Shown one piece after another: positions 1 to 48,215 of a stretch of 64,000 nt of DNA. The DNA comes from Promethearchaeota archaeon (GTDB taxonomy: Archaea; Asgardarchaeota; Lokiarchaeia; Sigyniarchaeales; SOKP01), in NCBI GenBank assembly GCA_030603385.1, contig JAUVXW010000007.1:1-64000 (forward strand), written 5' to 3'. Positions within the stretch are counted from its first letter, which is position 1; the number at the start of each line of letters is the position of its first letter. The notes under the pieces are model-generated. The model saw only the letters and a program-made list of their open reading frames with translations. It was not told the DNA's origin and did no database searches. The position numbers and the translations under genes were made by a program.

Positions 1-111
1 CAAAATAAATCGAAAAAAGTCTTCTAAATCCATATGCCAAAGAGAAATCTTTGTCAGATCTGTTGATCTCTCATCTTCCTTCTCAATTATTTTCACAATT
101 TTATTTATCAT
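1..111 (-). CDS. 5' part of a hypothetical protein running off the window (MINKIVKIIEKEDERSTDLTKISLWHMDLEDFFRFIL...)
   Basis: Manual translation; ATG at 111-109 with GTGAGG SD-like motif upstream; not in ORF track. Confidence 0.6.
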   Translation of the reverse strand, partial: MINKIVKIIEKEDERSTDLTKISLWHMDLEDFFRFIL

Positions 112-183
112 AATTTTAACCTCACTTTCTCAAAAGTGGCATTTTTGGGAATTATCTATAAGTAACAGATTGTGGGAGTCTTT

Positions 184-211
184 TTAAATTCTTCCTGAAA
201 TTTTATTGCTG
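184..211. repeat. 28-bp imperfect direct repeat, copy 1 (copy 2 at 5218-5245)
   Basis: TTAAATTCTTCCTGAAATTTTATTGCTG vs TTAAATTCTTCCTGGAATTTTAATGATG, 25/28 identical. Confidence 0.75.
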
Positions 212-331
212 CTAAATTAAAAAAAGAAAATTAATTCAAAATAATTTTGAATAAATTGATTCAATTAATTCTTCAAATTTGAATTATTTAATTCTTTGAA
301 GATGAAATAAATTTGTTTTTCTAAGAATTAG

Positions 332-373
332 TGATTTATACAAGCTGTATAATGATTTATACAAGTTGTATAA
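332..373. repeat. Tandem 2 x 21-bp repeat, each containing palindrome TTATACA-N3-TGTATAA
   Basis: TGATTTATACAAGCTGTATAA followed by TGATTTATACAAGTTGTATAA. Confidence 0.9.
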
Positions 374-521
374 TTCAATTTATTAAAATTTCAATTAAGT
401 CATCTTTAGATGTTATAATTGAAATTTCTATTGATACTAATATAATTTTGAAAGTAAATTTGCAATTAATTTTAATTTAAAATTTTGCGAAACGGAGGCG
501 CCTTTTTTTAGAAATAATTTG

Positions 522-552
522 AATTTCAAATTCAAGTTTCAAATTTGAAATT
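522..552. repeat. Perfect inverted repeat with 11-bp arms and 9-bp spacer
   Basis: AATTTCAAATT-caagtttca-AATTTGAAATT. Confidence 0.75.
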
Positions 553-690
553 GCGAAGCCAACTTTGAAATAGAGTTAAGATATTAAGAGATTTCTAGCA
601 TTCCCATTAAATTTATTGATAGGCATAAATCTTTTGAATCAAAAGTTAAAAACCTTAAAAACAAGTACTTGGGAAGAATTAGTGATTTAT

Positions 691-730
691 TAATAAATAG
701 TGATAAATAGTGCTAAATAGCAAAAAATAG
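691..730. repeat. Four 10-bp iteron-like repeats ending in AAATAG
   Basis: taataaatag tgataaatag tgctaaatag caaaaaatag; preceded by AAGAATTAGTGATTTAT (674-690), which is identical to 323-339. Confidence 0.75.
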
Positions 731-1067
731 TTATGGTTTTAAGGTTTATTCTGTATCTTAGAAACTACCCACTAACTTTTGCGAAACCTTTTGCTTCTTT
801 GTCCTTTATGAGTGGGCGGTCATTAGGAAGGAGATCTCAGAAATAATTTCCGAAACGATTTCGGATTTTTTTAATAAAATCTCGTGAAACTAAAATGAAA
901 AAAATAATTTTGAAATTATTCCAAATTTTGGATTTAATTAAATCCTTTAAATTAAAAGTTTTTTTAGAAAAAGTGAGATGGTGGGAATTCCTGCTAATGA
1001 GTTTTTTTGTACCAGGTTGGGGTAAGTTTGGCCCCTATCTGAAAAGCCAAATTTGGGTTTTCCCTTT

Positions 1068-1505
1068 CTATAAATCAGTATATTCCAATAATAATTGTAA
1101 TGTAGTTAAATAATCGTATGCTGTCCTTTCTGAAATACCAAAATTCAAATATATATCTTCTATCTCTTTTATTGTTAACCCTAATAATAAACCTCTAAAA
1201 TGCTGTATAGCTTCACTTCCTACTCTTTCAAAAAGAGAATGTTTTAGAGAAATAGCAAACCGGATTAAATTTTGAAAAGAAAGAGGTCTAATTTTTTCGA
1301 TTGATTTGTATGGTTTCTCATTAATTTCTTCAAATAATTCGAGAGTAGTATATGGTAATTTATTTTTCAATACTTTTTCATGTTTCTCTTTAATCTCTGG
1401 GTTTTCTTCTGCTAATCTTTTTATGATCTCTAATCGTTCTAAATTTCGTGGTGAGATATCTAAGCTTGTGGAGATTACTCTCCAATCTTTAATTTTTTTC
1501 TTCAT
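1068..1505 (-). CDS. Hypothetical protein with probable C-terminal HTH
   Basis: C-terminal TIKEIEDIYLNFGISERTAYDYLTTL resembles an HTH recognition helix. Confidence 0.55.
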   Translation of the reverse strand: MKKKIKDWRVISTSLDISPRNLERLEIIKRLAEENPEIKEKHEKVLKNKLPYTTLELFEEINEKPYKSIEKIRPLSFQNLIRFAISLKHSLFERVGSEAIQHFRGLLLGLTIKEIEDIYLNFGISERTAYDYLTTLQLLLEYTDL

Positions 1506-1717
1506 AATAAATACAAAATAGTTTTTATTTTTAAGGTTTTGTCATTATATGACAAAAAGAAAAAATAATCCCAAATCTTAATTTATAATTCTGAATTTCT
1601 TTTTTATAAATAAACTTTATAAAGTACTATATAATATAATATCATAATAAATAAAGTACTTACTTTATATAAAAATTAAATTTTAAAAAATAAACATAAG
1701 GAGTTGAATTTAAAAAA

Positions 1718-1855
1718 ATGAAAGTAATAACAATATATTTCGAAGAAGATGATTTCAAGGAGCTGAAGAAGCTTAAGGGTAAATTATCTTGGCGAGATTT
1801 CATTTTAACTCTAATTAATAAAGATGAAAGTGGTGATAATATCGATGTCGGATGA
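1718..1855 (+). CDS. Small ribbon-helix-helix / antitoxin-like DNA-binding protein (45 aa), not in ORF track
   Basis: MKVITIYFEEDDFKELKKLKGKLSWRDFILTLINKDESGDNIDVG: alternating N-terminal beta strand plus two helices; AGGAG SD upstream; overlaps the start of the next gene. Confidence 0.7.
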   Translation: MKVITIYFEEDDFKELKKLKGKLSWRDFILTLINKDESGDNIDVG

Positions 1856-2642
1856 TTTACCTAAAGCATGGGTTAGACCTGTTAAAAAAGAGACCTATAT
1901 TTCCGCAATTGGAACTACAAGTCTTCGTGTTGTGGCATCTGCATATGTCGAATTAAATAATGTTAAGATTATAAAACTTATAGCCAAAAGCGGAACCGCT
2001 CCTAAGGAGACTGATGTATTGAGTGAAGATTACGGTGTCAAGGTTGGTGATGGACAGGTAAAGGATTTTATGGTTAATTATAAACTTGAGAAGGATGAGG
2101 ATTTAGATGATATGAACCCTTTTGATGTCACATGTCTAGCTAAAATTATAGAGCTTATGGATGATACTCTTCCTGAGTTTATAGATAAAAAAACACGAGA
2201 ATCACACCCTCCTGATTTACCAATCTCATTAATGGAAGTGGAGATTACTGACCCAAAGTTTATAGAGATAGCCGATATAGAAAACCCTAAGCTTGATTTA
2301 CGGTTTAATACATTAAAAGCTGAGAATGAGCAATTAAAACAGGATATATATGATAAGCATAGAGATCATGCATTATCTTATTTATTTACACACGGTTTTA
2401 AGAGACATACGCTTAATTGTCAAATGGTAATTGAAACATCTAAGAGATTTTCTGAAAAGGAAGACCGTAAGAATGCCATTATGTATTGGGGAGGAAAGGA
2501 TGATTTATTTCCTAAAACGGATTATAACTTATGGTTATTTATTCATACACATTATATTACACCTAGAGCTTTTGCTATACAAAAGAAGTTAGTTCTTGCT
2601 GACGAAGATAAATTATCACTTGACGGATATAAATGGGGGTGA
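1845..2642 (+). CDS. Hypothetical protein (track start 1824; ATG 1845 more likely)
   Basis: Long ORF in an operon; GGTGA SD upstream of ATG 1845; no recognisable family. Confidence 0.75.
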   Translation: MSDDLPKAWVRPVKKETYISAIGTTSLRVVASAYVELNNVKIIKLIAKSGTAPKETDVLSEDYGVKVGDGQVKDFMVNYKLEKDEDLDDMNPFDVTCLAKIIELMDDTLPEFIDKKTRESHPPDLPISLMEVEITDPKFIEIADIENPKLDLRFNTLKAENEQLKQDIYDKHRDHALSYLFTHGFKRHTLNCQMVIETSKRFSEKEDRKNAIMYWGGKDDLFPKTDYNLWLFIHTHYITPRAFAIQKKLVLADEDKLSLDGYKWG

Positions 2643-2647
2643 TAAAA

Positions 2648-2911
2648 ATGGTGGATAAATTGGAAGGAATTAAATTTAAGGAAAAGTGTTGGCTCATTCC
2701 ATTAGACGATGACGAGCTTACATTATATTTCTATGATGATAAAGATGTCGCAATGAAAGAATTGAAGTCATTGATAAAGGAAAATCCTGACGCAGAAATC
2801 TCGATTGCAGAGCTTACATATTCGATACAAGGGGATAAAGGTAAGTTTAGTGCTACTGGTGTTGAGTTGAAGGAGATTATGAAAGCATGGGCAACTGAGG
2901 AGGATGAATAA
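2648..2911 (+). CDS. Small acidic hypothetical protein (track start 2633)
   Basis: GGGGTGA SD before ATG 2648; TAATG coupling to next gene. Confidence 0.7.
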   Translation: MVDKLEGIKFKEKCWLIPLDDDELTLYFYDDKDVAMKELKSLIKENPDAEISIAELTYSIQGDKGKFSATGVELKEIMKAWATEEDE

Positions 2912-4038
2912 TGGGTAAGTTTGAAATGGAATCAGATGAAGATGTTAGTATAGATGAAAAAGCGGGTATTGTATATCCATCTCATTATCAAGAAAAGAAG
3001 ATGATTTCTGTTAATGATATCATATTCGATACTACCCAATCAAGACATGGTGAATGGGAGAATGATGAACTTGACCTTCAGTTGATGAGTTCTGTTGAAG
3101 AAATTGGTTTGATATATGATATTATGGTTAGACCTACTGACAGTGTTAAATATGGTGGTAATCATGATAAACCATATGCTTGTGTGGCTGGTTCTCGAAG
3201 GTTTCATTCCATGATTGCCGCTGGACATACTGAAGTTCCGTGTATTATAAGAGATCTTAGCGATATTGATGCTGTTATGTACTCTTTGAGTGAGAATATT
3301 GGTCGAAAGGCATTAACCCCATTTCAAGAACAACGTGCGGTAAATCTATGGTTTAATATGTTATTAGAAAAAAGAACCCAAGAGTTTATGAAAGATAAGG
3401 GAATAGATAATATCGAAGGTGATAATTATAAAGGAGATAGACGAAAAATTAGAACTTCTGTTGTACAAAATATTGCAGATAAGATATATGCTAAAAAAAC
3501 TGATTCTGTACATAGGATATTAAGGATAGGAAGTCTCCCTGATAGTATAAAAGGACTACTCAAAAAGTTAACTGAAAGAACTCCTGAAGATATAAAAATT
3601 CTTAAATCATATGGATTAAAGCATGATTTTATGATGGATAAAGACGGGCTTTTAATTATTAGAGAAATTCAAAAAAGGTTTTTTGGAGAAGAAAAAATTG
3701 ATTCAATTTTTTCTCAAAAAATTTTTGAAATGATAAAAAAAAGTAAAATTGACGAAAAGGAATTTCATGCGACCCAGAATTATATACTAAAAGACATAAG
3801 AGATCAGCTTAAGGCAGGGAAATCTTTTGAAGTTGTTATGAAAGAACTAAAAACAAAGGAAAAGGAGTACACATTTGAAGAAGGGGTACAGAGATATATT
3901 ATTAGAGTACCACCAGATTACACTAAATGGCACGAAAGAGCTTGTAGTGAACTTAGAAAGAAAAGTAATGAGATAATATCTTACATCTATTTAAAATGGT
4001 TAAGAGATCAAGCTAAGAAAAATGATTGGAAACAATGA
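2911..4038 (+). CDS. ParB/Srx-family protein
   Basis: ParB N-domain pattern: ISVNDI...QSR...LMSSVEEIGLIYDIMVRP...VAGSRRFHSM...EVPCIIRD...SLSENIGRKALTPFQE (GxRR and EN..R motifs); RHH-like C-terminus. Confidence 0.85.
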   Translation: MGKFEMESDEDVSIDEKAGIVYPSHYQEKKMISVNDIIFDTTQSRHGEWENDELDLQLMSSVEEIGLIYDIMVRPTDSVKYGGNHDKPYACVAGSRRFHSMIAAGHTEVPCIIRDLSDIDAVMYSLSENIGRKALTPFQEQRAVNLWFNMLLEKRTQEFMKDKGIDNIEGDNYKGDRRKIRTSVVQNIADKIYAKKTDSVHRILRIGSLPDSIKGLLKKLTERTPEDIKILKSYGLKHDFMMDKDGLLIIREIQKRFFGEEKIDSIFSQKIFEMIKKSKIDEKEFHATQNYILKDIRDQLKAGKSFEVVMKELKTKEKEYTFEEGVQRYIIRVPPDYTKWHERACSELRKKSNEIISYIYLKWLRDQAKKNDWKQ

Positions 4039-5203
4039 GTTTCAAGTTATAAGAAATGGAGAAAACAAGGAGAATAATATAGAAGATGTAATACCTAAGT
4101 TACTTCCAGATTCTTATGATGCATTAATCCATAGAAATTGCCTATTTCTTGATGAAAGCTTTAATCCTCGTGATGAGAAACCTGACCCGAGGTTGACTAG
4201 CGATATCAGAAAGAGGGGAGGATACCAAGTAGCTATTGTCGTATTTAAATATGGTGAATATAAATTCGGTGTTGGTGGGGGTTGGCAGAGGGAACAAGCA
4301 GGTATCGAAATTGGATATACTGTATTTCCATGCAAGATATTCGATAATAGGCGTAAAATGTTAGAATATCTCGATAGTAGTTATCTTCAAACACCTCTAA
4401 GCAATTTAGCGAATATTCGTAATATTATGATACATTATAGAGAATTTAATGATATTAATGTTGTTGCTCAAAAGCTTAGTAAGTCAATATCCACTATCAA
4501 AAGAGCTGTGAAAATTAATAAACACTTTTCTCTATTATCATTGGTAGCCAAGCCTCATGAACGTGATGTAGACAATTGGCGATTTATTTATGATATAGAA
4601 GGTCGTGATATGTTTGAAAAAAGAAGTCTAACACTCGAAATTGCTGAATCATTAGCTTTAGGATTGCATAAATTCTCAGAGAATAGTATAGGTAAGATTG
4701 CTATTCTTCTATTTAAGAATAAGAAGAGTTATAATGGAAAAATTGATAGGATAATTGATTATATTGTGTCTAAGCCTGATAGAGATGATTATAAGGTATT
4801 AATTGCAGAGTTTATGAATATAAAAAAGAAACAGAATATAACAATGAATCTTGCATCATTCACTCTTGATGAACGAGAATTATTAGAAAAGTATAAGGGT
4901 GAGATGCGTGTAAAAACTATTAATGAACTAATAACACGATTGATAAGAAGGGATCTCTGCTTATATAATAGTTCTTTTATCGGGCGTCCTAACAAACCTT
5001 TTAAAGATCTTAGATTTAAATATGGAACTCAAGAGATTATTATCCGCAAGAATGATGGAGATACTGAGGTTGCAATTCTTGGAGACGATGGATTCTTCAT
5101 AAAATATCAATTAAATGATGTGTTAGAAAAGAGATGGAATAGTAATACATTAATACATAAGCCTATAAAAGCTATACTTAATACTCTTAAAATAAAATAC
5201 TAA
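4022..5203 (+). CDS. Second, divergent ParB-like protein with HTH
   Basis: NPR...LTSDIRKRGG...IVV...VGGGWQREQA...FPCKI matches the ParB N-domain; VVAQKLSKSISTIKRAV is HTH-like. Confidence 0.7.
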   Translation: MIGNNEFQVIRNGENKENNIEDVIPKLLPDSYDALIHRNCLFLDESFNPRDEKPDPRLTSDIRKRGGYQVAIVVFKYGEYKFGVGGGWQREQAGIEIGYTVFPCKIFDNRRKMLEYLDSSYLQTPLSNLANIRNIMIHYREFNDINVVAQKLSKSISTIKRAVKINKHFSLLSLVAKPHERDVDNWRFIYDIEGRDMFEKRSLTLEIAESLALGLHKFSENSIGKIAILLFKNKKSYNGKIDRIIDYIVSKPDRDDYKVLIAEFMNIKKKQNITMNLASFTLDERELLEKYKGEMRVKTINELITRLIRRDLCLYNSSFIGRPNKPFKDLRFKYGTQEIIIRKNDGDTEVAILGDDGFFIKYQLNDVLEKRWNSNTLIHKPIKAILNTLKIKY

Positions 5204-5217
5204 TTATTATTTTTTTA

Positions 5218-5245
5218 TTAAATTCTTCCTGGAATTTTAATGATG
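5218..5245. repeat. 28-bp imperfect direct repeat, copy 2 (copy 1 at 184-211)
   Basis: 25/28 identity to 184-211. Confidence 0.75.
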
Positions 5246-5258
5246 TAAAAATGCATCA

Positions 5259-5858
5259 TTATAAAAAATGGATTTTATTGAGATATTCTCCAAATTCAAT
5301 TCCTTTATAGAGCGAATCATCATATTCCATTAATCTTTTTAACTTTAAATGAGAATATTTTGTATGATAAAGAACTCTTAACAGGAATACCGGGAGAATT
5401 CCAAAAGTATAGCATTTAAGATAAAATAATTCTTTTTCATATCCAAGTAATCTACAGGATATAACTTCATGTAAATATAAGGCTTCTCTAACTTCATTTT
5501 CAGTTAAATCCCTAACAAGTAACCCAATATTTTTATCTAGTTCTTTTTTTGAAATGTTAGGGTTTCGGGAAGCAATATAACTTCTAAATTGTTTTTTATC
5601 CTCTTCATTCAAATATCTCATAACAGCAGCAATAACTTTTTCAAAATATTTTTCTTCATTAAGTAAAAATGCTCTTATGTTTAAGGCCATATCAGGAGCT
5701 ATATTAAAATCATTTTTATTCCTAACTCTACAAGAAATTGTAGTGGATCTACTATGCCAAAAATGTCTTTTTCTTTTATTGATAAAATAATATTCTGAAT
5801 CATCTTTGTCAACAATGTTGTTAACAACTTCCAGGATTCTTTTACTCAATTTTTTCAA
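5259..5858 (-). CDS. Hypothetical protein
   Basis: 199-aa ORF, TTG start, no recognisable motif. Confidence 0.65.
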   Translation of the reverse strand: MKKLSKRILEVVNNIVDKDDSEYYFINKRKRHFWHSRSTTISCRVRNKNDFNIAPDMALNIRAFLLNEEKYFEKVIAAVMRYLNEEDKKQFRSYIASRNPNISKKELDKNIGLLVRDLTENEVREALYLHEVISCRLLGYEKELFYLKCYTFGILPVFLLRVLYHTKYSHLKLKRLMEYDDSLYKGIEFGEYLNKIHFL

Positions 5859-6136
5859 CCAGGTTAATTAATGTAAACCAATTATGGAATATAAATCAAT
5901 GAAAATATATAAATAATTATTATTAATCAATTAATTTGATCCATGTTTACAATATATCAATGCGAAATCTTGAAGTTAGGATGCTTTCTCAAAATATTTT
6001 CTTGAAATTTGGAGAAATTATAAATTATTATTTAATAATTTAGTGGAAATTATTTTTGGAATAATCTTAATTTTGTTTGCTTATTAGCAAACATTTATAA
6101 AGAACAAACACATCTTGATCTTAGTGATTAAAAAAA

Positions 6137-6345
6137 TGGTAAGTTATAAAAAACTGTATGAAGACCAAATAGAGTTTATTAGAAAAGAATGGGATTCAGA
6201 ATATAAATGTCCTAAATGTGGAATGATACTAAGAGAATCCTTAACAGGAATTATCTGCTCTAATGAGAATTGCTCTTTTGAATACTCTATAAGTGGTTTA
6301 GTAAGCAGAATAGCAGAAACAAATCACTGGGAGAGGTGTGATTAA
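6137..6345 (+). CDS. Small Zn-ribbon protein (track start 6115)
   Basis: CPKCG...CSNENC. Confidence 0.65.
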
Positions 6346-6592
6346 AAAAATGAAAAGTAAAATTGGAAAGATAATGTTTGAACAAGACTTAAAGGATTTA
6401 ATGAAAGAATCACATCAAAGAGAACAATTAATTTTAGAACAAGCTCGAAGAAATGCTTGTAATAAATGTAAAGAATGTATTTTTAAAGATTATTTTGAAG
6501 ATAGTACTTTCATAAAAGAAATTATGCCTAAAAAAGGAGAAGTTTATTCAAAAAATCAATGTATTGAAATTAAAAAAATATTAGAGGATTAA
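6338..6592 (+). CDS. Small Cys-containing hypothetical protein
   Basis: CNKCKEC...C; overlapping operon arrangement. Confidence 0.6.
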   Translation: MIKKMKSKIGKIMFEQDLKDLMKESHQREQLILEQARRNACNKCKECIFKDYFEDSTFIKEIMPKKGEVYSKNQCIEIKKILED

Positions 6593-6594
6593 AA

Positions 6595-7398: not shown

Positions 7399-7412
7399 AA
7401 AGGTAGATAAAA

Positions 7413-7709
7413 ATGGTTAAAGAAAAGATTTTAAAGATCCGGATAAGTGAATACTTAAAAAGTAGAGCAAAAGATTGCGCTAGTTCATATGAATGGTCTT
7501 TATCTCAATATATTCGATTTTTAATTAGAATGGATGTTGATAGTCCAATATATCAAAAAATTATTCCTTTGATAAAGGAAAATGTGGACACATTAGACAA
7601 GATTCAAGAGTTTACACATGAAGGAAGGCGTTTTCTGATCATACCTGAAAATCAGGAGAATTTAAAAAAATCAATTAATGAAATATTGATAAATAAAAAG
7701 GAGAATTAA
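7413..7709 (+). CDS. Ribbon-helix-helix DNA-binding protein
   Basis: KILKIRISEYLKSRAKDCASSYEWSLSQYIRFLI is a typical RHH pattern. Confidence 0.75.
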   Translation: MVKEKILKIRISEYLKSRAKDCASSYEWSLSQYIRFLIRMDVDSPIYQKIIPLIKENVDTLDKIQEFTHEGRRFLIIPENQENLKKSINEILINKKEN

Positions 7710-7710
7710 A

Positions 7711-8052: not shown

Positions 8053-8110
8053 AAAATGTAATAAAAACTAAGTTAGAATAAAAATTTAAAAAAAATTAAA
8101 ATAAAAAGAG

Positions 8111-35300: not shown

Positions 35301-38300
35301 GCCCAAACAATCTCGGCTGTAGTTGGAGGAGTTCTTGCTGGAATTGTTTCAATTTTTACAGCAGGTGCTGGAGCTAAGATTGCATATTATGTTGGCCATT
35401 TCATTACTTATGCAATTTGCAATGCAATCCATTCATATATACAAGAAAGAGACCAAAACTATTACATTCGCTCTCAGACTTTTCACAATGTCAATTATGA
35501 AGGCGAAGTGAAATTATCTGATAAACTAATGAAAGATCGCTATTTTGGCGATATGATGACTGATGCCTTGTTAGATAGTGGCAGTGGAGTATATGCCCCT
35601 GTAAGGGCTGAAACCGATAAACACGCGTATTCTGGTGAAGTTGTCCTTGCCCCTCGCGGCAAATCAAAGACTTCTCTAAGTATAACGCTTGATGTTTCAT
35701 TTAAGCATTTAGCTTTGGATTATTCTCAACAAACTCGTGGTTATTTCACATATTCTGATCTTGACGATCCTCGATTTATTTCGTTCTATCACGAGGGTAA
35801 TGAGGTTTTCATAATTCCGAGAAACGATAAGAGTAAGTATATGAGTAATTCAATTATGTATTTAGAAGATACGGTCCACAACACGACTATAGCGAATGAT
35901 GATACCCATTATGATAGCATTACTCCTTATATGGTTTATGGCGATGGCACGTTTGTTCCAGTACTTCAATTTGCCGATTCGGAAGGAGCTATCCCAGTTC
36001 CCGAATTCTACGACGAGTATCCAATTTTCTTATCCCCAGAACATTACGAGCTTATAAGCGAAGAATATCATTCAATCTATAAGATCTACGATGGTATTTC
36101 CAATACCATCCAGCTTATACCCGATTATAGTACTCATACTTTACATTCTGATATCGTATCATTTGACGCATATCTCTCTGATGGACAAGGTACTGAAATT
36201 CCCATTGGAAATTATAAGAACTCTGATAGTTATGAGTCCTTTACCTTTAACAGCACTTCAGGGAAAGTAGTTCTATCACCCCAACAAGTAAATCATTTAG
36301 ATGATTATTTAGACAACTATGAAGGTGATGCATATATTGTCCTTGAGTTTTTCATTGAGAAATATAGATCAGTTGATGATTTAAGAGATCTTACCGCCGA
36401 AGAAGTGGAGAACATTGCAACCATGCAATCTGCTCACGCTAATATCTTAGAATATATGTATCAGCATACCATAGCCACGAAGACTCAGCAAAAGTTAAGC
36501 GAAGCAGCATACACGGTACTTGTGACCGTTATAAGCACACTACCTTTTGCAATAGCTGGTGCTTTTAGTAAAGGATTGATACAATTACCTAAAATGGTTA
36601 TATTCGAGACGTTTGAAGAATTGTTCATTGATCCATGGATCGAATCGTATGTTTCTGGTTATGCAGAAGAACATGGATGGAGCACATTAGGAAAGTCACT
36701 TGCCGTAAGCTTTGCTGAAAGTAGCAGAGAGACATTTGGAAGCACGATATCCAGAGGACTTAAACAAGTTTTCTCGATAAATCAACAAGCTTCACAGAGT
36801 ATTAATTCAGAATCACAATCGCAAGCTCAATCAGTACAGTCGGCAAGTCAGCTAAAAGCAGATCGTAAATCAGCAACACTTCAATCGGTTTCTCAAATAG
36901 CATTATCGACAATCATACTCTTTGCGGGCTTTATATCACCAATTGCTGTCATATTTGGCACTTATGCCACTCAAGTTGGAATGGGTGTTATGTCGACAGT
37001 TAAAGAAGTTCGATACAAGCATTTGCTTAATAAGATTATTGACTCATATTCAGAAGCCAATGTACAGGATCTTTTAAGCATACTTGCCCCATCAAAAGTA
37101 TCTGATGCACAGACCAACTTAGTTCATAACGAATTAAGCCCTATAATAAGTAAAGAGCATAGTTTAATTACTGATGAGCAGAAGAATAAAGGTAAATCTG
37201 AAAATTTACTACAAAAAACTTTTGCGTGGGTAAAACAACATAAGAAACAAATTGCAATGTATGCCGGAGTTGCCATTACTGGATTTCTTGCCTCTCAAGG
37301 TATTAATGCTCTTTTTTCTGATTCTATGTTTGGAAGTCTTGCTGGTAGTGTTACCAGCATGGGACTCGGTACAATTGGGATGGTTAAACAAGAGTCTACT
37401 TCTGATAAAAATACCAAAAAGGTTAAGATCCAACAGACTCTAGACGGTAAATCCTTACTTCCTTCTAAAGTAGATAGAATAATTTCAAGAGAATTTGGAG
37501 GAAAAAAACATTATACTCAGGAATATATGAAAAATCTTTGGAAATTAGGTAAAACTGATGGGAAGGATGGTAATTACATTTTTGGTATGATTTATCAGTG
37601 GACTCATGAGAAAAGCGGTAAAGTTTATGTATATCCAGGAAGAACGGAAAGGCGTAGAGGTACTCCAGATTATCGACCATATTCATCCATTTCTGTAAGG
37701 TTTGATGAGGAAATTAGGACCGCTATTGAGAGCAAAATAGGAGAATTACAGAGAAGGAAATGTAAAATGTATTACGATATGCGACTAGTATTTGATAGTG
37801 CTGGTAAAGGTCAAAAAGGTATTAATGCAATTATAAAGAATTTTAAGCTCGAAATTGTGGAATTGCAAGTAATGTCAGAAACTTATGAGAAAGATAAAAT
37901 AATAATTGAACAGCTTGAAGATTATTGGTCGGATGTGGCAATTTCGAAGGGCTATGAATTATACACTAAAGCAGGTGGTAGAATTGGAGCCCATGTTTCA
38001 GAGCTAAAGGGAGCACACGGTAGAAAAGCTGCTCACAAAAAAGTTAGGGATATGATACGACACGGATTTTCTAAAAAAGATATTGCTCAATATTTCGAGA
38101 TGCCTTGGAGTCCCATAACTCACGGTTCAATGGCTCTTAATTATTTACTTCGTGAGGCTTTAGACGGTAAATCTTACACTAAGGTAAGAAACGAAGAGAT
38201 TAGTTCAGAAATTCTAGACCTTATAGATAATGGAGTCCTCACAATTCCAGATCTTGCTTCATATTTTAAGGGTATGACTCCCAAAGATATTTTTAATTTT

Positions 38301-38702
38301 TTACGAACCAGACATTTTCCACAAGGAAACTTATATCTTAATGGATTGATTAGTTCTGCAATCTTTAAGCTAAAGCAAGATAAAGTTTTCGACAAATATG
38401 ATCCTGTATTCACATATCACGATATATTAAATGAATTAGGTATAAGAACTGGAGATCTTTTGCTTACTGAATATATGAAAAGAGAAATGAAGACTATAAC
38501 TAAAATCACAGAAGATGATCTAATCTCTTGGTTAAAACCTTATGCTAGAATGCTAATTAAGAATTCCAATAGTGCTTCTGAATTGTTAGACTTACTAAAT
38601 TGGGACGAAGGTTTGACAGAAGATTATAGGGTCCATAAGTTGTTTGGGATGGATTTTAAACAAGCTAAGATGACTTTTACTAGTGGGGTTCTGAATAAAT
38701 AA
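11349..38702 (+). CDS. Giant (~9,100 aa) membrane-anchored surface protein with C-terminal GIY-YIG-like nuclease/HTH region; candidate polymorphic toxin. Likely true start is ATG 11406
   Basis: Uninterrupted 27.35-kb ORF; GAGGTG SD before 11406; about five hydrophobic segments in the first ~200 aa; many N-x-S/T sequons; DxDxDG loops; Gly/Ala-rich hydrophobic helices at ~35.3-37.4 kb; GMIY...VYPGRT...R...E...GYE motif at ~37.6-38.0 kb. Confidence 0.85.
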   Translation: MGYIKIQHYVSFTLKEVQSMELVEKSSNIDELIEHHCQKKIRLPKIQLNYSNKAKGITCFASFFLFLIGFILSGNDIQSKIIITGGYLFFFYLNLPRFSDSGIKKDYYAALHEYVIKRTDFLNLDSKKALICLTSYLISSIFSLLSIYVFNNIEAFLISFFIFLIVLKVYMPDLTNYRKKNVRFLAIIIIFSLILFPMLISWESLGLKQEVCPSPSFGIYPQHQRRENNVIDLINLDYTENLNELTDITFNSLISIKFKTSCSTNKIITFHADLIPRNVSISGELNSEAKVLEKTHSFSSKQFKGPFSERDLYFKLDLSSTQTPVLPGKYQLDIFYIVQKGFTVGEHSSVHSYEINIQKEYVFFIEKYSADPGKSTRKGSIYTIENLDLPGWTTIFETRIEDSLGNPIPNGIVSLYTTDYKDGNIILKKTSDYQVGDDGFIYYKANSRYFGELTRGKLVFDGSQSLYYKTTTHLESAELSEDKFVHSSDYPTNGDFLYNGTQFKLEEVNQFKTRTHLLYFHDFSIKELQWVKSPNYCYYTGTSDFIYLNTKKSTDTYIESPIITYLGTKAELAYLSYRYQLYNYESLNDEIWVDLQSQLWRDGVIVHQQFDYKGFYNEKGGNWKTIETNLTNYFQEGGQQFKIKILANFTARSHHINEISIRFDYARLEVYHPPVYFRDFTFHNGFNEFTSPITETTESFYWDLNNTVSEEQFNAIIGNNFSLEAIPNGSSPNSFGILTKLKEKTEFSESEFLITNQINLDNLEFLKYENLSNCYLDLDAKLNLFSFINKNIAKKSTSLSGALETEMLVMTESFSDPDLVISSEIIYDDFANDYILKELNLRETWDKDFGELFYNFDTLTNEIEVPNIDQYLQLSAKEQEDLFILFKNLYEEGYHKIYLVFKFKINIFNKIQDESLNNINVWFNRFQLCYRWMNFSGFFNQTYLLERDKDPFIFFEKLTSEANLNLLSDFGIEIEGRNDLISFSSLSDNYFGTLGVYDSFGKFTVDENNIKARTGIISPNLYSNNTNNYTLRAIIDFYPFLKCQEDIQLESIFHSFNSNKMNLNLEIFNQYEEKIATNYGNPYLMVRDLDVNDFASITNNNGEKYYFTIKPMKLHVYLHDIITSTDYIYLKLVSEFSDKFNSTITYEQGVFLDTVKLEFIQEETYFEEESYSEPINNHNNDYSSGAPIYFQDIPSFIENMSINDHNFEEIVFFNDHTNLTLDLKNNDNVSSVKIHAIKILGDPAFYTYIDQNKQWFNLIIKGTSSYPNSNSPYLTSDKLSYSFFDGYDLNGTFNYENVIHLDNYTIPFKDLNIIDIERIYTSQEISIPFYFDPIAQELTIDREYARYLNSSTNLILKGVKCDLGWNSSFSFEGEKWVLEEFNVVNYLSSVPEWFECLYGFENDESSEYVHYKQVDQYTKDMFEFYFSISYDNGSKKTTPIYNARYDNVKATGIFGKILTNSEGETKVNYHMLGETGNFRNIMFGTSNPEHRTLYFTLGYEIINVGDSEYYISSQFPSPLNKIRQIELYNQTNSKIGSMNLDYSSEPIRYFSLELDSKYFNEGFNWIKAIITDQADNNKIIYTSIYVYKELNYSLSQSLAFGDTIYYNQERNYTQDPHQFFGFLNNWVDNGRKSNITVEISYFNYNEQIWIPLGSTVSSDGSFTVDWHEIDESYRSLLPSQRGYLPVNLTYYERPPAYFYGDYGKFDSSNTLSPFLIDETGKIYIYHFNHFKDKWIINKTIGLGVSLNDNTVSALDLNGDERTDLVFSSKTQEDNRIHFYIYNSETKIFDFNQTINIQKDISYSQALAKPVIRDYLFDFTDGTTPVLYLCISNTSNDVNFILKLSFDFYLNFVQESITQIPANYLITKLSLIKDRLFIGAISPQRQAKVQSSIFTLDPKLLINSTEIFEDSIEGIVAEISYFKAQVGEMLVLGISKDQYNEDDIILYYLFDEVEKSWKRPALIFNPNSDIFFNDSLDFRIRAIVTSKEEHLESLYIASNHGVFRTIITTEIFEEDIIPIYYSVDTVRISDLLAYKEENEDYIQLPLTNYPITSIINVYKVEKCYYDEIYIFNRIERLDENGYSISNDRRSLMCYPERGNWTLNTLLNSDLYYEIRYYYEATLKEASGYISSRIKKEEHSHSTDIIASTSEMKAEDLRFQLKNIYDNSWTLNYGTNYEDWNYQTIPVTSGLPFIIRYGSLEGSGITSVSQLSTLTEYNNKRINYGTITTTSDMVSTSTELSQFETGQDFKDPNNYQYPYSNSYIDSVWVEDLDLSSSIDFRTDMGDYTELLGDMGNIADDILPSTVANTVAYQPEIINVAVSVSGGGTPTVKDDQDQDVTTNNQRIQILKNKGNYLQVYESNNADLGLYIDVMFQLDDNEDYKSIKCILVSTAFAQIIVPTGNYDPGGYVDYVKNMKVSLIDNENIEIGTFHTKDDIFENIFEASNLYVIDNDGLPNFDDDIYRKFKTYNFGKSIYSDPAYIEQGYYKVDNIPERANFLFPNKYNIHKITKGVFSRGANNQFRFYYYYHDDALYYEPESTYEEEHIYDYNYLRLDTSDTTNFVNDGKLKLRFSMAGYTGDLSKILRNELIVRHFNCTVFSDKDNLNNQNWDFSGDGYTSQDTDGGLILNSGSISLDDTNCPTKTYIDSNSDIKYRAVFRLQDTGNIVTFSVGSASYRYDTLDPNLPDKLSLQNGINTIEITYDAFNSWNLFINGENGTDGTGELEGWFNPNEFEPSGDFYPTISVGDNDEINLIEIKNQVFEKIDANYNGWSTDYNDSEELVVGGKGETYKDLTYSDISLQREIIYSFNNGLSNIKAVFEDLRLWSDLDYHTNIDEVSQQQYDTDFPLFISNIYNDDEYSGTFYTEPSNTFPISGIMPFPTDLDLNFPNFAPSMPDNIYILKVEPHFYFKYDYGTDAKLIVRLSNGLYIDAPLDNPYIGNQILQIDYLYDYILSDLQVYSSSNFQAEAFNYGFTYTDDLELSTTTIKIENCYGNVDIYMMQYKVYTTPKPNTFRDLLYNQEFNIPNNAVTEFYILDKYSNKQLISNNVNFKSAGSYIKALLNNSGNINYNPENNLENIIYKNSFGQNALSFNIKANINYPDFADDSETIRAFNKINDFKIVPKLKPKEGNGLSNPDPDDPTPYPYGSSWWHQQELVVPLPFNLTFNEFSSQDFNDLSELVFDVEFNLSLLGFSSFAWRPNLKIYDYSTKEWISYVENITSGGKILWNWKNDYITNNTYDRIQLYHEPNRYFQIFNGNSHNCEFSFRFTREAYPNLDQLLQSSGNSVSITLMCEAYIIPGVYKDGGWNIEFENSTHPFNRKEISSKIILKNSSIRRFRKTEIYKKNIFYSNNFHNGKPFDKPSNSYIDLKTLLGGNSFDDIAGICTVYGIKQKPLIIVPLDSNQWDFNRTLGRLQLSNEVLLNFDYFNFTMELWSDFLSLGGNKFEPNKSLFENITLIEKIIGVRNDGSIQWFTKNYENGLFSYTQEEPYYIHLNQDDSIDHITFASHINLSEFIRIRGVVQDIGNYRSSLYKEKISLLHTDHLRFPFDFSSIDNLEFQDLRLNCAFESGFISDESINNIFSDSYYSVYIDFYKTVDEYWDSNPENMSYIGRYNVLNNLLFNSSDFRYHSFTLSGIDLMNLSLDTSRLFGSFQQNNTLILKITSEFRGSHQGKWLEGDFAFEVKDASLKIHMEDGNYSELEELVASSAFIQNFPIPDLSSIEAISFQINYSEIPQIATSAFIIGNNNGIYPLQQYEIFKGPSVIQIQFFNPELEKWIIVDSVIYDLGDENLYTFLYLIDKHSTDLTQFDCLKDNKSTYQLRYRLVIDKIFTDKACFVEVKFRMEDVKLQIYYMPESNTNELNPKLFFSADITDLLTVGDYPMQNYIEDLFISLNFNYGISLSNQAKDYFNQYAFYTETIKLFIFDENNNRRLIGNPNSIINLKKIAKDSLYEYIKYRNGKYYIDFLLDYKWQLKQFQSYQCNSIFNVNAYIKLIKFSIQAQVASVKKELISPNDIGENSVLFTGDITSDGIVDIGFSGGFLEKKENNERIYLKYSFSYVFDSNYNNEFDNTDPQITFAEFIFDLRFTCNESSTYLFTDMGLPFKKLILGNEKVLNLTTNGRVDKASLYLSSPVQKIGEFSRVNGTKNKFVYNWTNIRTLLEPYYTTGDEIEIIINVFDSSSKINDTLRYTCLLDFEPPEVKVKIGDGATNYSSKNCATPWTRYIVDIYDNLENILNHSHYYYSEILRNYFQVKVFEISNNLVCKTGFIPLDRTIGNLNDLHIPIKNYENPDEYYYVVEFKTVDAAGNVGINSSYLGDKCKLFVSNELYIEFNDILIDVNELFQNSNDFLNFTLIDANQNNVINASLFAKSGNYYLKNPVWNESTQTYYIEFENILDLVIHSENIFDQEIISNYYLDNNLNWEVNNDDCYAFVKHASQKDPLTLSYFLQKERTVLLNISNLETYKLIDFIRPNEVYCYVWNNVTKAYDIKHTFAQEDYTVSKNGSISWDTEIDFESMNLRGNQIIFTYFGSNYSNIIKDNRKNGMFFTILVPSLYSTHCTIDTLQIEFRDFEDNTFNYLMDSLDFDIYFQNATKYKKVIPGLGEMLQIPIYIDFSRLNSPDLQAQFNISHIHTITFGVFDAHIWPGDPVSFNQEYGYINLNYPYQVFGISEISFYDILTDGSNLTLQINDLNFKYSIDEYPITVNKFDAHITGLEILNDKTKLLYDQLNLIKFADILDVYFQINNDSELFPIYEMTTPLMGLVDILSNTIIGLSLMEWDLSIKKYHSRFTIAEDVMQDGLENYRLKLMFIPTDIENSINSTETLNIDLIPQTISKICLWNNREIIINDDYVFDLKTKFTLHYEEELQLKGYILDNSTYYREREIIPFKATDPLGDQKVQIYDIDLHGLIGESHFIDVNNFKVEFIDRASFNSIEILFEVVNGIVVVQSDIIENAWIEYFDYYHPQYPNKFVLKVKWNEKTPNILPFDTDLLLSYKVMQGKKIIPVTFEDSDDVLTPVDFWKYDYDTFKWVNSEIFTEVLNIKQTKENSSLFTGVDPNQIIRILGSSIGSGIITLVNVWQRVGTTFIVVDDSNYEYELIKVNGIDSLEVKYLGVNSVDLLVEYTFIPLIKLKHYAIDDLLADSYIKTWVNNHFFSIPMEVGVDYDIVGENKNQLIFYTFYTSVTPKFNLNNGWFIVYYGYLTEEINLVKNLILEFLDYDGFWKPIAKIPLTSTGDFDHRFYIGNGGLQIPLNEETIMRLTYLPLNLTSYCNQNSEVNYNFNCVYNTSHSVNELFTLFVEGKTSKINYIPTEFSKSFDRWAIIPERKYTTTTNPYESLHEGEEYTYLEFHRTITDNYEFTFQLTDGKGDFLANQLIWCEIGWKPKAGLNYKLVDWEDDYGQYIDSEALGTVWLKDEGEKMCYGPGILDYEYPISRMFTRPETWEFIDSETDTISEYSSYAWDYRISDSNGLVTFNFTFDDDYIRDHHKIFDNSLFNSGSVTFDSLDDYRLYIRVFHAPVVDINHMAFENSSSLVCSKGNNVFDMSRTSELHDYDISQTMFYSGSYAEGLISLYPEDIMLGVPNLLIYQLGSELDDIFSFNIEVAEANVIPDTEIMTINKLGKNFETDKLIPEYDNNSYLIEGMPIVATITDFSGNSPFAEGNVEFFEYVDEAGKAKLNISDYYMQQLSPGVYKVNIYAIPRTYTKSMYRFITLEVRPENWLKMGEPTMTLDLLNWYDSGWGGASFGSDYCFYEDIYPRLTGYLAANHSEEGLEDYVKFQLYAKLRDIDSTTDWDEVEWIELGDEDIYLSSLVYDGLYYFEYPLGFDGDMLIGKEIILNITADCTYNQTGMSAENRKQQLNILNLTLATSTIRRDAEVLRSYSDSDIHKVWIGDFSQYGVERYFEYVDTKDIYGIDAEDILLNLIGYVEESISIVEVKAIQNYREIILEENIDYDFEPNGYEIDIESSTLLDNHSDLVISYAIKVDANKVLEFTFSESSGFTHSSLILGTENNTIKLEKENYLGKFYSTFNETYRLDSSGSTYLSKSFTGITSDDFKIININSSNPYSIDILDDRILIDFDSMRNEDVAIEYGIATYQLDRGYQQFGMTLGNAVRKLSKFHSTHNILVFSDDIVNTVNLLTIPDDPQNPLESGDSKLLIPISKNNKTSISFTNLGLLYDSVLRGNFYLDDCILLGDIHDLKSVLATFTFTTEDGESYFDYVSIDPSTDNNKFDFEIDLQPIFCVKGYTTYDIEIDFLSYGDNKKFLQYILFEKFELTVDDRIIQTVDKPMLNKRSELDVAQTINTAHYAQIFTSRLDEAYNVPEDAWLTITIEGFDEYGELVKLYQNDQKKLAFEHVDNNEFYFQSLKSHDNRLVNSLGFHLNAYDLEIPKYIEGEINLYAGKGTHNDIDDESWMYWSTTEDFQFYPNEYNFTSFEFTGFTDRHFEVSLDLTHGGEFSDIINNKEWWRIKPFGITVQTEAGERYIDRNFFCSWQHDTSYPNKPIYTFSLLRDYYEYIGILSNTEVVVTYYYQKESLSYFTAYDEILYGNDYTFIIRNSQGSVISDIENIHSIEGNNITFTDKIKIFLEIGETFTIEYEFRTKKLLDTKHLLIEIQPWEMKFYNSFYPFSGGSIIAPLYYNLSANYQYQLALNYRLQEKDILTFSINLTSKDIQNDMVAYDFGYNNPIVDYDNTPVIIAYFYNEDNEKILIPDDCLHCTFNSIIIKMIKSKFALTEEDTINISIFPELHNKYQLFHNLIVDLVNDNIVLTNWTVFQDPQNNLIPNYESPYFIFEVDPYETTNKGKVKEIYAILNETNYLTYYLTEDLNDPINGWKYFDTLIMKLGFLNPEVLDYLEVSFYYENNGKQLIGSVNVTIDMIDTESGAVYIRLPESTDFNKFTIQNGAQIVFRPVFRTPSEFQGFYYQDGYPTIQLVEWNSNDVKDGFLEVELDSKIISENQSVYVFNDLMENMYEATEVNVETEEHEYDGSTEKFSLEFNTITIPEVFLDTNGNTIKMRDGDILFLKYKAFLEASIGITVEDMVLQRKPYFENYETNRYDIPIAEISLLGVNVDGNNYSIDDVFENREKLVAWETSLDITPFESELENTYKQQVFNISFADIKPEFKKLDEKNIENCYVTDIMITSNDPRYEIVVDSFFIFEFDENANIYDSDIFEIYPNNHMETFYFGNYSDIYSNSVILNTSEFLPIYQGIESVDETYYFEVFDNLDNWYYFGEHLIGEEISSGVYNITWNLQYCQEYYYAYINQYEDLSELYDYYNPHIDKLRYLYLTWADKNAWNEWQTIEQANVNISTLDITFEWCDETPEEYESVVYNQTLDEFEARHIAVEPIYPYDSSRKTDIFELSQDYSNAQDLDIYKITGYFFNETVKNFDPSISNIQLDKKSIEISAPSGFNLDNFEKIIVYLNFTEGAYSDYTQFRLLQNAIDNHPEAPSWTKNDSIYIDFEYTDIDYFLLLEDYAVGSEDSMFEYFEYVRNDKFVSFDYSFSMLEEIDNFDSFTEVNDPSSVLELYDFDLDANHELVIQKDDVSNDGVFDSFKYGALNPAGEISFHTLVQEASSVQVYKDQSVDYSVSEGYQINWKDIWRKYYIFARRYLTTYTTVTNTISSAGKLIQKDLDADGIPDKEIFFRTSFSITEVITVTNETTHLHFKPTCHNPGGKRHDGYLTELRNSTTIYTDQSVSFMFKDFEGEEAVSIRLYEDIFPNELSEAYNLENNLYSITNDQNDEDPDNDITIDSPALEELLSLSHDTDPVSAIFDQVSIYENDEFDTENILAVNKSLTASGMYNAITGLGSQGSEHEFSVSVIEVKPNEGVYYDINTRFGPQKIEGSYYYYDENNDGRYSTIFVTDSNDNIIGIGFDNDKNLIFEPNSRQFVEKHIIKGGAFGWKKYDYLTGEEYYVVENYIKNKLVFFQDEDRYEGYFLEPTLSDSLFDIWKMQYNAGSSKLIKEQMSITSHQFLSSITPSKIIGDIAWQIKAQTISAVVGGVLAGIVSIFTAGAGAKIAYYVGHFITYAICNAIHSYIQERDQNYYIRSQTFHNVNYEGEVKLSDKLMKDRYFGDMMTDALLDSGSGVYAPVRAETDKHAYSGEVVLAPRGKSKTSLSITLDVSFKHLALDYSQQTRGYFTYSDLDDPRFISFYHEGNEVFIIPRNDKSKYMSNSIMYLEDTVHNTTIANDDTHYDSITPYMVYGDGTFVPVLQFADSEGAIPVPEFYDEYPIFLSPEHYELISEEYHSIYKIYDGISNTIQLIPDYSTHTLHSDIVSFDAYLSDGQGTEIPIGNYKNSDSYESFTFNSTSGKVVLSPQQVNHLDDYLDNYEGDAYIVLEFFIEKYRSVDDLRDLTAEEVENIATMQSAHANILEYMYQHTIATKTQQKLSEAAYTVLVTVISTLPFAIAGAFSKGLIQLPKMVIFETFEELFIDPWIESYVSGYAEEHGWSTLGKSLAVSFAESSRETFGSTISRGLKQVFSINQQASQSINSESQSQAQSVQSASQLKADRKSATLQSVSQIALSTIILFAGFISPIAVIFGTYATQVGMGVMSTVKEVRYKHLLNKIIDSYSEANVQDLLSILAPSKVSDAQTNLVHNELSPIISKEHSLITDEQKNKGKSENLLQKTFAWVKQHKKQIAMYAGVAITGFLASQGINALFSDSMFGSLAGSVTSMGLGTIGMVKQESTSDKNTKKVKIQQTLDGKSLLPSKVDRIISREFGGKKHYTQEYMKNLWKLGKTDGKDGNYIFGMIYQWTHEKSGKVYVYPGRTERRRGTPDYRPYSSISVRFDEEIRTAIESKIGELQRRKCKMYYDMRLVFDSAGKGQKGINAIIKNFKLEIVELQVMSETYEKDKIIIEQLEDYWSDVAISKGYELYTKAGGRIGAHVSELKGAHGRKAAHKKVRDMIRHGFSKKDIAQYFEMPWSPITHGSMALNYLLREALDGKSYTKVRNEEISSEILDLIDNGVLTIPDLASYFKGMTPKDIFNFLRTRHFPQGNLYLNGLISSAIFKLKQDKVFDKYDPVFTYHDILNELGIRTGDLLLTEYMKREMKTITKITEDDLISWLKPYARMLIKNSNSASELLDLLNWDEGLTEDYRVHKLFGMDFKQAKMTFTSGVLNK

Positions 38703-38807
38703 TCAATAAATCCCCTCTTATATTATGTTATATAAAACTTGCTTACTGTCAAGAGATTTAAATAATAATGATGATACAATCTTAATAGGAATACGGTAAT
38801 AAATATT

Positions 38808-39668
38808 ATGGCAAGGAGCGATGTAGGTATACTAGAAGATGACGAAGAGGCTGATGTAGCAGGATTTATGTTAGAAGCTTGTGGAATAGACTCTCCCGAT
38901 TTTTATCATAATAAAAGAATTTTAACTAGGGAGAATTTTGAAAAAAATTATAAATTCTTCGTCAAAATGGCAGAAAACCGTGGCTCGAGAAGAGCCTCAT
39001 ACTTTGTAATTGGTTATTTTGCCCTAATAACTGGGGGAAAAATAACTGAAGAACTTCGAAAAAAAATATTAGAGATAGCGAAATGGGAACACGAGGAGGG
39101 ATATTGGCAAGATAAGGAGTTTGCTCTCATGAGAAAGATTTACCTCGAAGACTTTCGAGAGAAAATTCGTATTCATAAAGCCGGAACAAAGCTACATCCC
39201 GCAATCTTTAAGTATAGCGGGAAGGACATGTCTGAATCAAGAGTCCTTATTGGTGTTAATAATATACTGAGTCTTTATGAAATTAATGACATAAAACATG
39301 TGAATTTAGATGGGTGGAATTTAACTTCTATTCCACATGAAATTTTTGAGCTTCAAAATCTTAAGTCATTAAGTTTAGAGTTTAATCAAATATCAGACAT
39401 TGATGATGAGATAACAAACTTAACAAAATTAAAGCATCTTTTTTTAGATTATAATCAACTTAAGTCAATTCCTGAGTCATTTGGAAAATTAGCATCACTT
39501 AAAAGCTTAAGTATCATACATAATAATGTAAATAGGTTACCAATATCATTGAAGAATCTAAAACACTTAAAGCATATTTATGTAAGAGGAACAGGAATAA
39601 ACCAAGCACCAAAGTTCCTTAAAGGCTCTAAGCTTGAACCTCTTAACGAGACAATTTACCTTAAATAA
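38808..39668 (+). CDS. N-terminal helical domain plus leucine-rich repeats; candidate immunity protein
   Basis: LRR units LKSLSLEFNQISDI, LKHLFLDYNQLKSIPESFGKL, LKSLSIIHNNVNRLPISL; acidic N-terminus (GILEDDEEADV) loosely DUF4259-like. Confidence 0.8.
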   Translation: MARSDVGILEDDEEADVAGFMLEACGIDSPDFYHNKRILTRENFEKNYKFFVKMAENRGSRRASYFVIGYFALITGGKITEELRKKILEIAKWEHEEGYWQDKEFALMRKIYLEDFREKIRIHKAGTKLHPAIFKYSGKDMSESRVLIGVNNILSLYEINDIKHVNLDGWNLTSIPHEIFELQNLKSLSLEFNQISDIDDEITNLTKLKHLFLDYNQLKSIPESFGKLASLKSLSIIHNNVNRLPISLKNLKHLKHIYVRGTGINQAPKFLKGSKLEPLNETIYLK

Positions 39669-40877: not shown

Positions 40878-40913
40878 AATTTATTTTTTTATTTATTATA
40901 TCTAAAAAATACA

Positions 40914-48207: not shown

Positions 48208-48215
48208 AAAATTTT

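Follow-up and report, generated by a model that had tools for sequence, protein, structure and literature searches.

A probably composite island in a Lokiarchaeia genome: a truncated mosaic element copy beside a giant membrane-protein gene

The first 64,000 nucleotides (nt) of contig JAUVXW010000007.1 from Promethearchaeota archaeon (Lokiarchaeia; assembly GCA_030603385.1, 3.9 Mb in 58 contigs), read on the forward strand and hereafter called the window, contain an accessory island in which a single gene of 9,117 codons stands close to a short tyrosine recombinase gene. This island is probably composite: two parts of different age would have come together at a recombination hot spot, instead of one mobile element having been inserted. 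Part A, from about position 2076 of contig C51 across an assembly gap to window position 10981, would be a truncated mosaic element copy, with a 199-amino acid (aa) open reading frame (ORF), two conserved non-coding segments and a catalytic-domain-only tyrosine recombinase as its backbone and with slots holding defence-type genes. Part B, consisting of the giant gene and a gene for a leucine-rich repeat (LRR) protein (11349–39668), would represent a single haplotype within a family of giant membrane proteins that evolves fast. A preliminary description of positions 1–39668, made from the letters of the window, had proposed an integrative element with a giant cargo gene; accessory DNA with element-derived parts and an empty site were indeed found, but the union of giant and recombinase in one mobile unit was not supported.

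No known group is more closely related to eukaryotes than the Asgard archaea. Giant genes have already been noted in them but are unexplained (PMC8813620; bioRxiv 10.1101/2023.11.21.568195). The source genome of the window is labelled here G000 and the contig that carries it (137.7 kb) C41; congeners and other genomes are labelled G, other contigs C and loci L, each with a number.

The left limit of the island is set by the assembly break, since base 1 of the window is the end of C41 and not a biological edge, and the repeat at the contig start places this break inside repeated element DNA. No other contig overlapped the start of C41, the sole match being the paralogous end of C15. Insertion was therefore tested by synteny. 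In G002, the closest congener (90% identity in the aSelB and Roadblock genes), at most about 1 kb separates the run aSelB-Roadblock-orf141-orf280 from the orthologs of the G000 genes that begin at C51:3135 and open a conserved 14-gene operon. The distance between the 154-aa gene of this operon side (c51_154) and orf280 is only 0.2–2.6 kb in 20 congeneric genomes, and in one further congener the next operon-side gene (c51_226) directly abuts orf280. At the same spot G000 holds at least 43 kb of extra DNA, made up of C51:1–3135, an unsequenced gap and window 1–39947, with its edges relative to G002 at C51:3135 and window 39947. The accessory nature of the region, as claimed in the preliminary description, was thus borne out: it is not syntenic and fixed in all relatives, 21 congeneric loci being empty or differently filled. 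G002 has a 234-aa ORF in the spacer, G026 two longin-like genes, and G022, without a giant, an LRR gene just beyond the 154-aa gene. These differing spacer genes point to a hot spot between the 14-gene operon and the Roadblock-aSelB genes.

The variable tract extends up to the Roadblock gene, since the orf280/orf141 pair of G000 is 65% identical to that of G069 and 56–69% to those of six other congeners, but only 38–44% identical to that of the otherwise closer G002. Among the relatives' loci L040–L071 these genes occur as two deeply diverged allele types (38–44% versus 56–69% identity to G000), which disagree with the aSelB/Roadblock relationships; orf280 is duplicated in many genomes. The features of the island and its right flank are as follows (window coordinates).

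1–202: contig-start repeat, 94% identical to the end of C15, in reverse orientation
1068–1505 (minus strand), 145 aa, and 1824–2642 (plus strand), 272 aa: two ORFs of unassigned family, without a family match
2911–4038, plus strand: ParB_N-domain protein, 375 aa (Pfam PF02195; partial NCBIfam matches)
4022–5203, plus strand: 393-aa partner gene with a 17-nt overlap with the ParB gene, without a family match
5211–5998, minus strand: backbone repeat with the 199-aa ORF (5259–5858), copies on C50 and C15
6595–7398, plus strand: PAPS-reductase-fold protein, 267 aa (Pfam PF01507)
7413–8497, plus strand: three small ORFs (98, 113 and 128 aa)
8601–8895: conserved non-coding backbone segment, copies on C50 and C15
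8930–9694, minus strand: 254-aa ORF of unassigned family in a variable slot
9869–10477, minus strand: short tyrosine recombinase, 202 aa (Phage_integrase)
10478–10981: conserved region upstream of the recombinase, at the end of which homology to C50 stops
11349–38702, plus strand: giant gene, 9,117 aa
35310–36953, plus strand: C-terminal membrane-helix cluster of the giant (residues 7988–8535), with sequon-poor loops
37416–38699, plus strand: basic, sequon-free tail of the giant (residues 8690–9117), with a predicted GIY-YIG-like domain at about nt 37581–37976 and then predicted helix-turn-helix (HTH) repeats
38808–39668, plus strand: LRR protein, 286 aa, without a signal peptide
39947–39980: first DNA matching G002 again, upstream of orf280 (right edge of the extra DNA relative to G002)
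40035–41339, plus strand: orf280 and orf141, allele type A

Window segments 1–202, 5211–5998, 8601–8895 and 9887–10981, together with C51:1–102 and 1718–2076, matched C50 and/or C15 with 88–97% DNA identity and with their order kept. The copies of the backbone repeat 5211–5998 on C50 and C15 were 88–93% identical in DNA and 89–91% in protein. Segment 8601–8895, which contains 38-nt direct repeats with a spacing of 61 nt, was 95% identical to C50:44750–45044, 92% to C15:62841–62588 and 82% to a further copy on C15, and a 95–96% identical copy of the recombinase was found at C50:45715–46308. The genes in between differed: the ParB_N protein, its partner, the PAPS reductase and the small ORFs in C41; GmrSD_N, RiboL-PSP HEPN, Fic and DUF2299 genes in C50; Fic, SDH-type ClpP-like protease and HD genes in C15. 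The place of the 254-aa ORF is taken in C50 by a DUF2299-like gene. Conserved backbone pieces with differing genes between them form the pattern of a mobile-element backbone with defence-gene slots, and the left 11 kb or so looks like one truncated, mosaic member of an element family with several copies in G000. The homology to C50 stops sharply at about position 10981, 368 bp before the ATG of the giant.

The giant is a member of a lineage-restricted family of proteins of 8,000 to more than 20,000 aa, gained and lost at many chromosomal sites. With residues 6600–8550 as query and 400 Asgard genomes sampled, homologs were found in 41 genomes (37 of 134 in the host's own family, 3 of 265 elsewhere). 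Open frames of the family reach 20,619 aa, at least three of about 14,000 aa are present in G253, and G000 itself has a colinear paralog of 14,833 aa (C3:19350–63848, minus strand; 21–27% identical). The giants carried by G003, G077, G076, G005 and G253 are 45–54% identical to that of the window. Giants 45–62% identical lie at other chromosomal places: on the far side of the 14-gene operon in G003, next to C4-type genes in G077, and in G024 within a 10.9-kb insert between C1- and C23-type genes, which are adjacent (empty) in G000. No recombinase was seen in the 9 kb (G253:C47) and 4.8 kb (G077:C36) upstream of two giants, where beta-helix surface-protein genes are located. These genes, of NosD type and 364–377 aa, lie just upstream of the giants at L123 (G077:C36) 5895–6989 and L099 (G253:C47) 11012–12145. 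A homolog of the island gene C51:2592–3044 was also seen near the G077 giant.

At the same site as in the window, G069 has an LRR gene (59% identical) and then a 91-codon ORF that corresponds to the last 80 residues of the giant (46% identical), colinear with G000 and placed between orf280 and the two genes that fill the G026 spacer; the recombinase was not found in G069. From this remnant it follows that the giant/LRR haplotype is either old at the site or moving by recombination in its flanks. Beside it, at L046 (G069:C24) 4984–5272, lies an 85-codon fragment 45% identical to a 449-aa protein of G000 (C19:16215–17564), which looks to be of the Schlafen/AlbA_2 DNA-binding type.

A recombinase homolog was detected in none of the five other giant-bearing genomes searched (G003, G077, G076, G005 and G253) and was not found in 52 of 53 congeners, the exception being one 34% match in G011. 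Between species the giant/LRR haplotype is 46–65% identical, and copies of part A within the genome are 88–97% identical; as the within-genome copies are nearly identical, the recombinase module is recent. The stop of C50 homology at 10981, the failure to find the recombinase in the other giant carriers searched, the presence of giants elsewhere, the G069 remnant and the differing ages together led to the composite reading. The recombinase would presumably once have integrated the part A element. For part B, the most likely mode of movement would be homologous recombination within conserved flanks, given that the neighbouring orf280/orf141 alleles go along with the giant and LRR genes. If the island is composite, a giant need not travel with an integrase, and the adjacency seen here would reflect a pile-up at a hot spot, which calls for caution in naming giant-gene mobile elements from single windows.

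The tyrosine recombinase named in the preliminary description was readily recognised as such (Phage_integrase PF00589, E 6e-25, 88.3 bits versus a cut-off of 27.1, profile positions 2–170 of 172). It consists of the catalytic domain only, without the N-terminal core-binding domain, and aligned to residues 94–259 of the 263-position archaeal XerA model of NCBIfam, its best model match. About 100 database homologs have the same make-up (186–202 aa, catalytic domain only; family length about 193 aa), and therefore the 202-aa protein is not a fragment. Relatives 60–65% identical sit in virus-like contigs with XPG nuclease, ThyA, dUTPase and queuosine-type genes, and nearer relatives (67–72%) in the element-like loci L154 and L155, which share further genes with C50 and C41. 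In C50, L154 and L155 the recombinase is followed by genes of about 350 and about 475 aa, both for predicted membrane or surface proteins, and then by a gene for a protein of 1.9–2.7 thousand aa; the C41 copy is without the block of the 350- and 475-aa genes. The orientation of the recombinase relative to the surface-gene block in C41 and C50 is opposite to that in L154 and L155. A DUF2299-like gene is common to L154 and C50, and the first of the three small ORFs of the window (98 aa) is 60% identical to an ORF in the related recombinase element of L154, a metagenome locus. In this family (C50:38754–60056 and the metagenome loci L154 and L155), the 1.9–2.7-thousand-aa protein shares a repeat with giants of the C3 type.

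An element family not described before is present in these archaea; its marks are a minimal tyrosine recombinase, slots for defence genes and blocks of surface-protein genes. No match in PHROGs was obtained for ten ORFs of the C50 element, no close relative came up when IMGVR was scanned with the recombinase, the giant and the 199-aa ORF, and tblastn against phage records returned generic XerD-like matches alone for the recombinase and nothing for the 199-aa ORF. Its design recalls the defence-gene hot spots in P2/P4-type prophage backbones that Rousset and colleagues reportedly described in 2022, as in both cases a conserved backbone including an integrase alternates with slots of differing defence-type genes. 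It differs in the archaeal host, in the recombinase of about 200 aa, in the lack of recognisable capsid or replication genes, and in that the ParB_N and PAPS-reductase set of the window matched no curated defence system above threshold. The 267-aa protein itself (Pfam PF01507, E 5e-6; PADLOC SspD, E 2e-9) showed weak likeness to SspD, BrxP and DndC.

The giant gene was confirmed as a single uninterrupted ORF of 9,117 aa that takes up 27,354 of 39,668 bases, or 69%, of the visible element, close to the share of about 70% given in the preliminary description. An open frame of this length at 30% G+C is not due to chance, and it has colinear homologs in other genomes. Four or five N-terminal hydrophobic membrane helices (residues 56–200) are followed by an acidic, Asn- and Tyr-rich region (residues 216–7987) with 1.43 N-X-S/T sequons per 100 aa, in which Pfam recognised nothing beyond a single FG-GAP repeat below threshold and internal repeats of sequence were not found. 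Further helices, separated by loops poor in sequons, occur near residues 7988, 8389 and 8517, and the tail (residues 8690–9117) is basic (K+R 16.6%) with zero sequons. Judged from charge and sequons only, the predicted topology would expose a glycosylatable ectodomain of some 7,800 residues on the exterior of the cell, with the tail in the cytoplasm.

Among 1.84 billion representative proteins searched, the tail had 43 relatives, several of which resemble the C-terminal ends of similar membrane proteins, with membrane helices or giant-like sequence. As the single-sequence structural model was unusable (predicted local distance difference test, pLDDT, 39), an alignment-based model (pLDDT 78) was used. 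Compared with 48,161 chains, this model gave the GIY-YIG catalytic domain of I-TevI (1ln0_A) as top match (Z 6.0, root-mean-square deviation 2.9 Å over 90 of 92 residues, 20% identity), and in a profile search against the PDB I-TevI ranked second, weakly (E 0.29). Pfam matches to GIY-YIG were obtained in relatives alone (E 0.03–0.1), and Foldseek with the alignment-based model gave no match at E 0.001 or better. The motifs GxIY and G-R-T and the Glu are present, the Glu (residue 168 of the tail) being conserved in at least 90% of the alignment, and the conserved Asn of the family is Thr here. Myb/TetR-like HTH repeats come after this domain. The tail may thus be made of an I-TevI-like GIY-YIG domain and HTH repeats, with scores that lie below family thresholds.

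As homologous giants bear unrelated tails, the tail is a swappable module. The options for its role include homing-like spread, tethering or cutting of DNA at the membrane, and a toxin tip with the LRR protein as partner. Polymorphic toxins of the contact-dependent inhibition (CDI) type, which have exchangeable nuclease tips at the C-terminus and immunity genes downstream, are likewise very large surface proteins with a C-terminal domain varying between homologs, and the small downstream LRR gene was kept with the tip remnant after loss of the giant in G069. In contrast to such toxins, the tip here comes after several membrane helices, is basic and sequon-free and looks cytoplasmic, and no secretion or cleavage motif was identified. 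The nuclease-like, predicted DNA-binding tail can be tested at the bench; this tail on a 9,117-aa membrane protein and the element family around the short recombinase are the most interesting matters that remain.

Several other explanations of the island were weighed. Module, giant and LRR gene could form one integrative element of at least 43 kb, inserted by the short recombinase with the giant as cargo. In favour of this, G002 lacks everything between C51:3135 and window 39947, and 20 other congeners have a short site; the distance between recombinase and giant is 870 bp, and the relatives of the recombinase in C50, L154 and L155 also precede large surface-protein genes (1,893 to more than 2,600 aa). 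Nevertheless, such a single insertion appears unlikely: the match to the paralogous element breaks off 368 bp short of the giant, and C41 is without the conserved genes of about 350 and 475 aa found after the recombinase in those loci. Furthermore, searches of the five other giant-bearing genomes and of G069 with its remnant gave no recombinase homolog, and att repeats longer than 12 nt were not found. These same negative searches (including the 52 of 53 congeners) and the same end of homology left the claim of one mobile unit of giant and recombinase unsupported. Alternatively, the giant might be self-propelled, its GIY-YIG/HTH tail acting as a homing endonuclease that, once DNA has been exchanged, cuts giant-less alleles so that repair copies the giant and its flanks. 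This is very improbable in our estimate, even if the GIY-YIG fold and motifs, the I-TevI matches (Z 6.0; E 0.29), the HTH repeats after the nuclease domain as in homing enzymes, the varied sites without integrases and the orf280/orf141 flank alleles travelling with the haplotype would all fit. The order of motifs (GIY...YxG-R...E...(Y)N), the predicted fold and the predicted HTH modules after it recall GIY-YIG homing endonucleases such as I-TevI and phage Seg, but those are free-standing, whereas this domain forms part of the end of a membrane protein of 9,117 aa, and a membrane-tethered nuclease would be an odd homing enzyme. Moreover, the scores are modest in both structure and sequence, Thr stands in place of the motif Asn, type A flanks also occur in genomes without a giant, and other giants have unrelated tails.

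A DNA invertase of Fim type, in which the 202-aa recombinase would flip a promoter-bearing segment and so turn the giant on and off, was also considered. In length (about 200 aa), catalytic-domain-only make-up and location beside surface-structure genes the recombinase resembles FimB/FimE, and an end-to-end but weak model match was obtained (NF007371, E 1e-6). In both C41 and C50 the recombinase gene has a surface-protein gene as its divergently oriented neighbour, its orientation relative to the surface-gene block in these two is opposite to that in L154 and L155, the flanking non-coding segments are highly conserved, and many contigs with family members are very short. Against this, none of eight loci had convincing or shared inverted repeats (best exact arms at most 14 nt, AT-rich), a 20-nt imperfect pair at 8826–8845 and 10972–10991 was not conserved in C50, archaeal XerA, in its catalytic half, is the model that fits best, and the relatives 60–65% identical occur in ordinary virus-like genomes, which makes switching by inversion highly improbable. 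A bolder scheme, to which we give little credence, would have the 193-aa recombinase family dedicated to moving or switching large surface-protein cassettes, and the giants equipped with interchangeable cytoplasmic DNA-acting tails, here a homing-endonuclease-like GIY-YIG/HTH module, that drive the spread of the gene among chromosomal sites or strains, or tether and cut DNA at the membrane. If true, it would be an archaeal system linking cell-surface diversification to selfish DNA enzymes.

Several points weigh against the composite reading itself, which is nonetheless held to be the probable one. The join between C51 and C41 was deduced from synteny, not sequenced, and, with the left end off the contig, the gap could hold replication, ParA or structural genes. 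When the C51 flank was compared with the window at 38.6–40.05 kb, direct and inverted words of 11–12 nt, AT-rich, were the longest, so that no att repeat was found, and comparison of the ends of the C41/C51 module with those of the C50 module gave just 9–12-nt AT-rich words and no precise element end. A 12-mer near the module ends was unmatched at the left end of the C50 copy, and the true left end may lie in the gap. Binning of metagenome-assembled genomes can drop element contigs, and the absence of the recombinase from other genomes is weaker than it appears. Finally, as its relatives in C50, L154 and L155 each precede a surface-protein block, a functional link of the recombinase to large surface-protein genes is conceivable.

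The likeness to aloposons put forward in the preliminary description was one of kind and not of membership. Aloposons of Ca. Heimdallarchaeum contain tandem giants, Otus and Ephialtes, of 3,000–6,000 aa (Wu et al. 2022, PMC8813620), have as integration sites tRNA genes that lie downstream of the giants, and possess four conserved genes on the upstream side, one of which codes for a MinD/ParA ATPase (PMC8813620); ParB-like genes occur in them as well (PMC11529989). The island shares with them an enormous gene that dominates an Asgard accessory region and a ParB-like gene nearby. It differs in having a single giant of 9,117 aa, not a tandem pair, the neighbours being of 286 aa (LRR) downstream and 202 aa upstream, in the tyrosine recombinase nearby, and in giant homologs nearly confined to the host's own family, with two stray matches beyond its lineage. 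No tRNA was found at the site, either in C51 or in the loci of four relatives scanned; the sole tRNA of the window, tRNA-Sec (48216–48308), is 9.5 kb away behind conserved host genes. Nor was ParA/MinD found in any ORF of at least 100 aa within 1–11348, the contig ending at base 1 and the gap to C51 being unsequenced.

Only the first gene of the ParB pair described earlier could be upheld. The 375-aa protein has a recognisable ParB/Noc-type N-terminal domain (residues 30–145; Pfam PF02195, E 3e-13, 50 bits, residues 30–130) with partial, N-terminal matches to the NCBIfam models parB_part and Noc. The full-length NCBIfam models scored far below their cut-offs, and the HTH and dimerisation domains were not matched, so that the protein falls short of a full ParB/Spo0J; a scan of the genome contigs with it gave no ParB relatives. 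The resemblance of the 393-aa partner to it is confined to 36 residues about the arginine motif of ParB (BLASTP E 0.027), at best a degenerate arginine-box region. The partner matched no Pfam, NCBIfam or PADLOC family, and its identity as a second ParB was not demonstrable. The observation that no capsid, terminase, VirB4, relaxase or replicase is recognisable was reproduced with Pfam on every ORF of at least 100 aa, where no conjugation family was found either, and a crude scan revealed no CRISPR array in the assembly.

In the part of the island on C51, a 266-nt stretch at C51:2185–2472, within a 95-codon ORF, is 96% identical to C4:232490–232755. The right half of the window contains typical Asgard genes (Roadblock, aSelB, tRNA-Sec, SepSecS, VPS28), among them a selenocysteine gene set formed by aSelB (41839–43257, minus strand), tRNA-Sec (48216–48308, plus strand) and SepSecS (48327–49694, plus strand); a listed ORF at 47957–48316 overlaps the tRNA-Sec gene and is probably spurious. 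Several diverged tandem coding repeats of about 130 nt occur at 59844–60650, inside an ORF of 505 aa (59410–60927) without a Pfam match, and repeat units related to these are present on seven other contigs.

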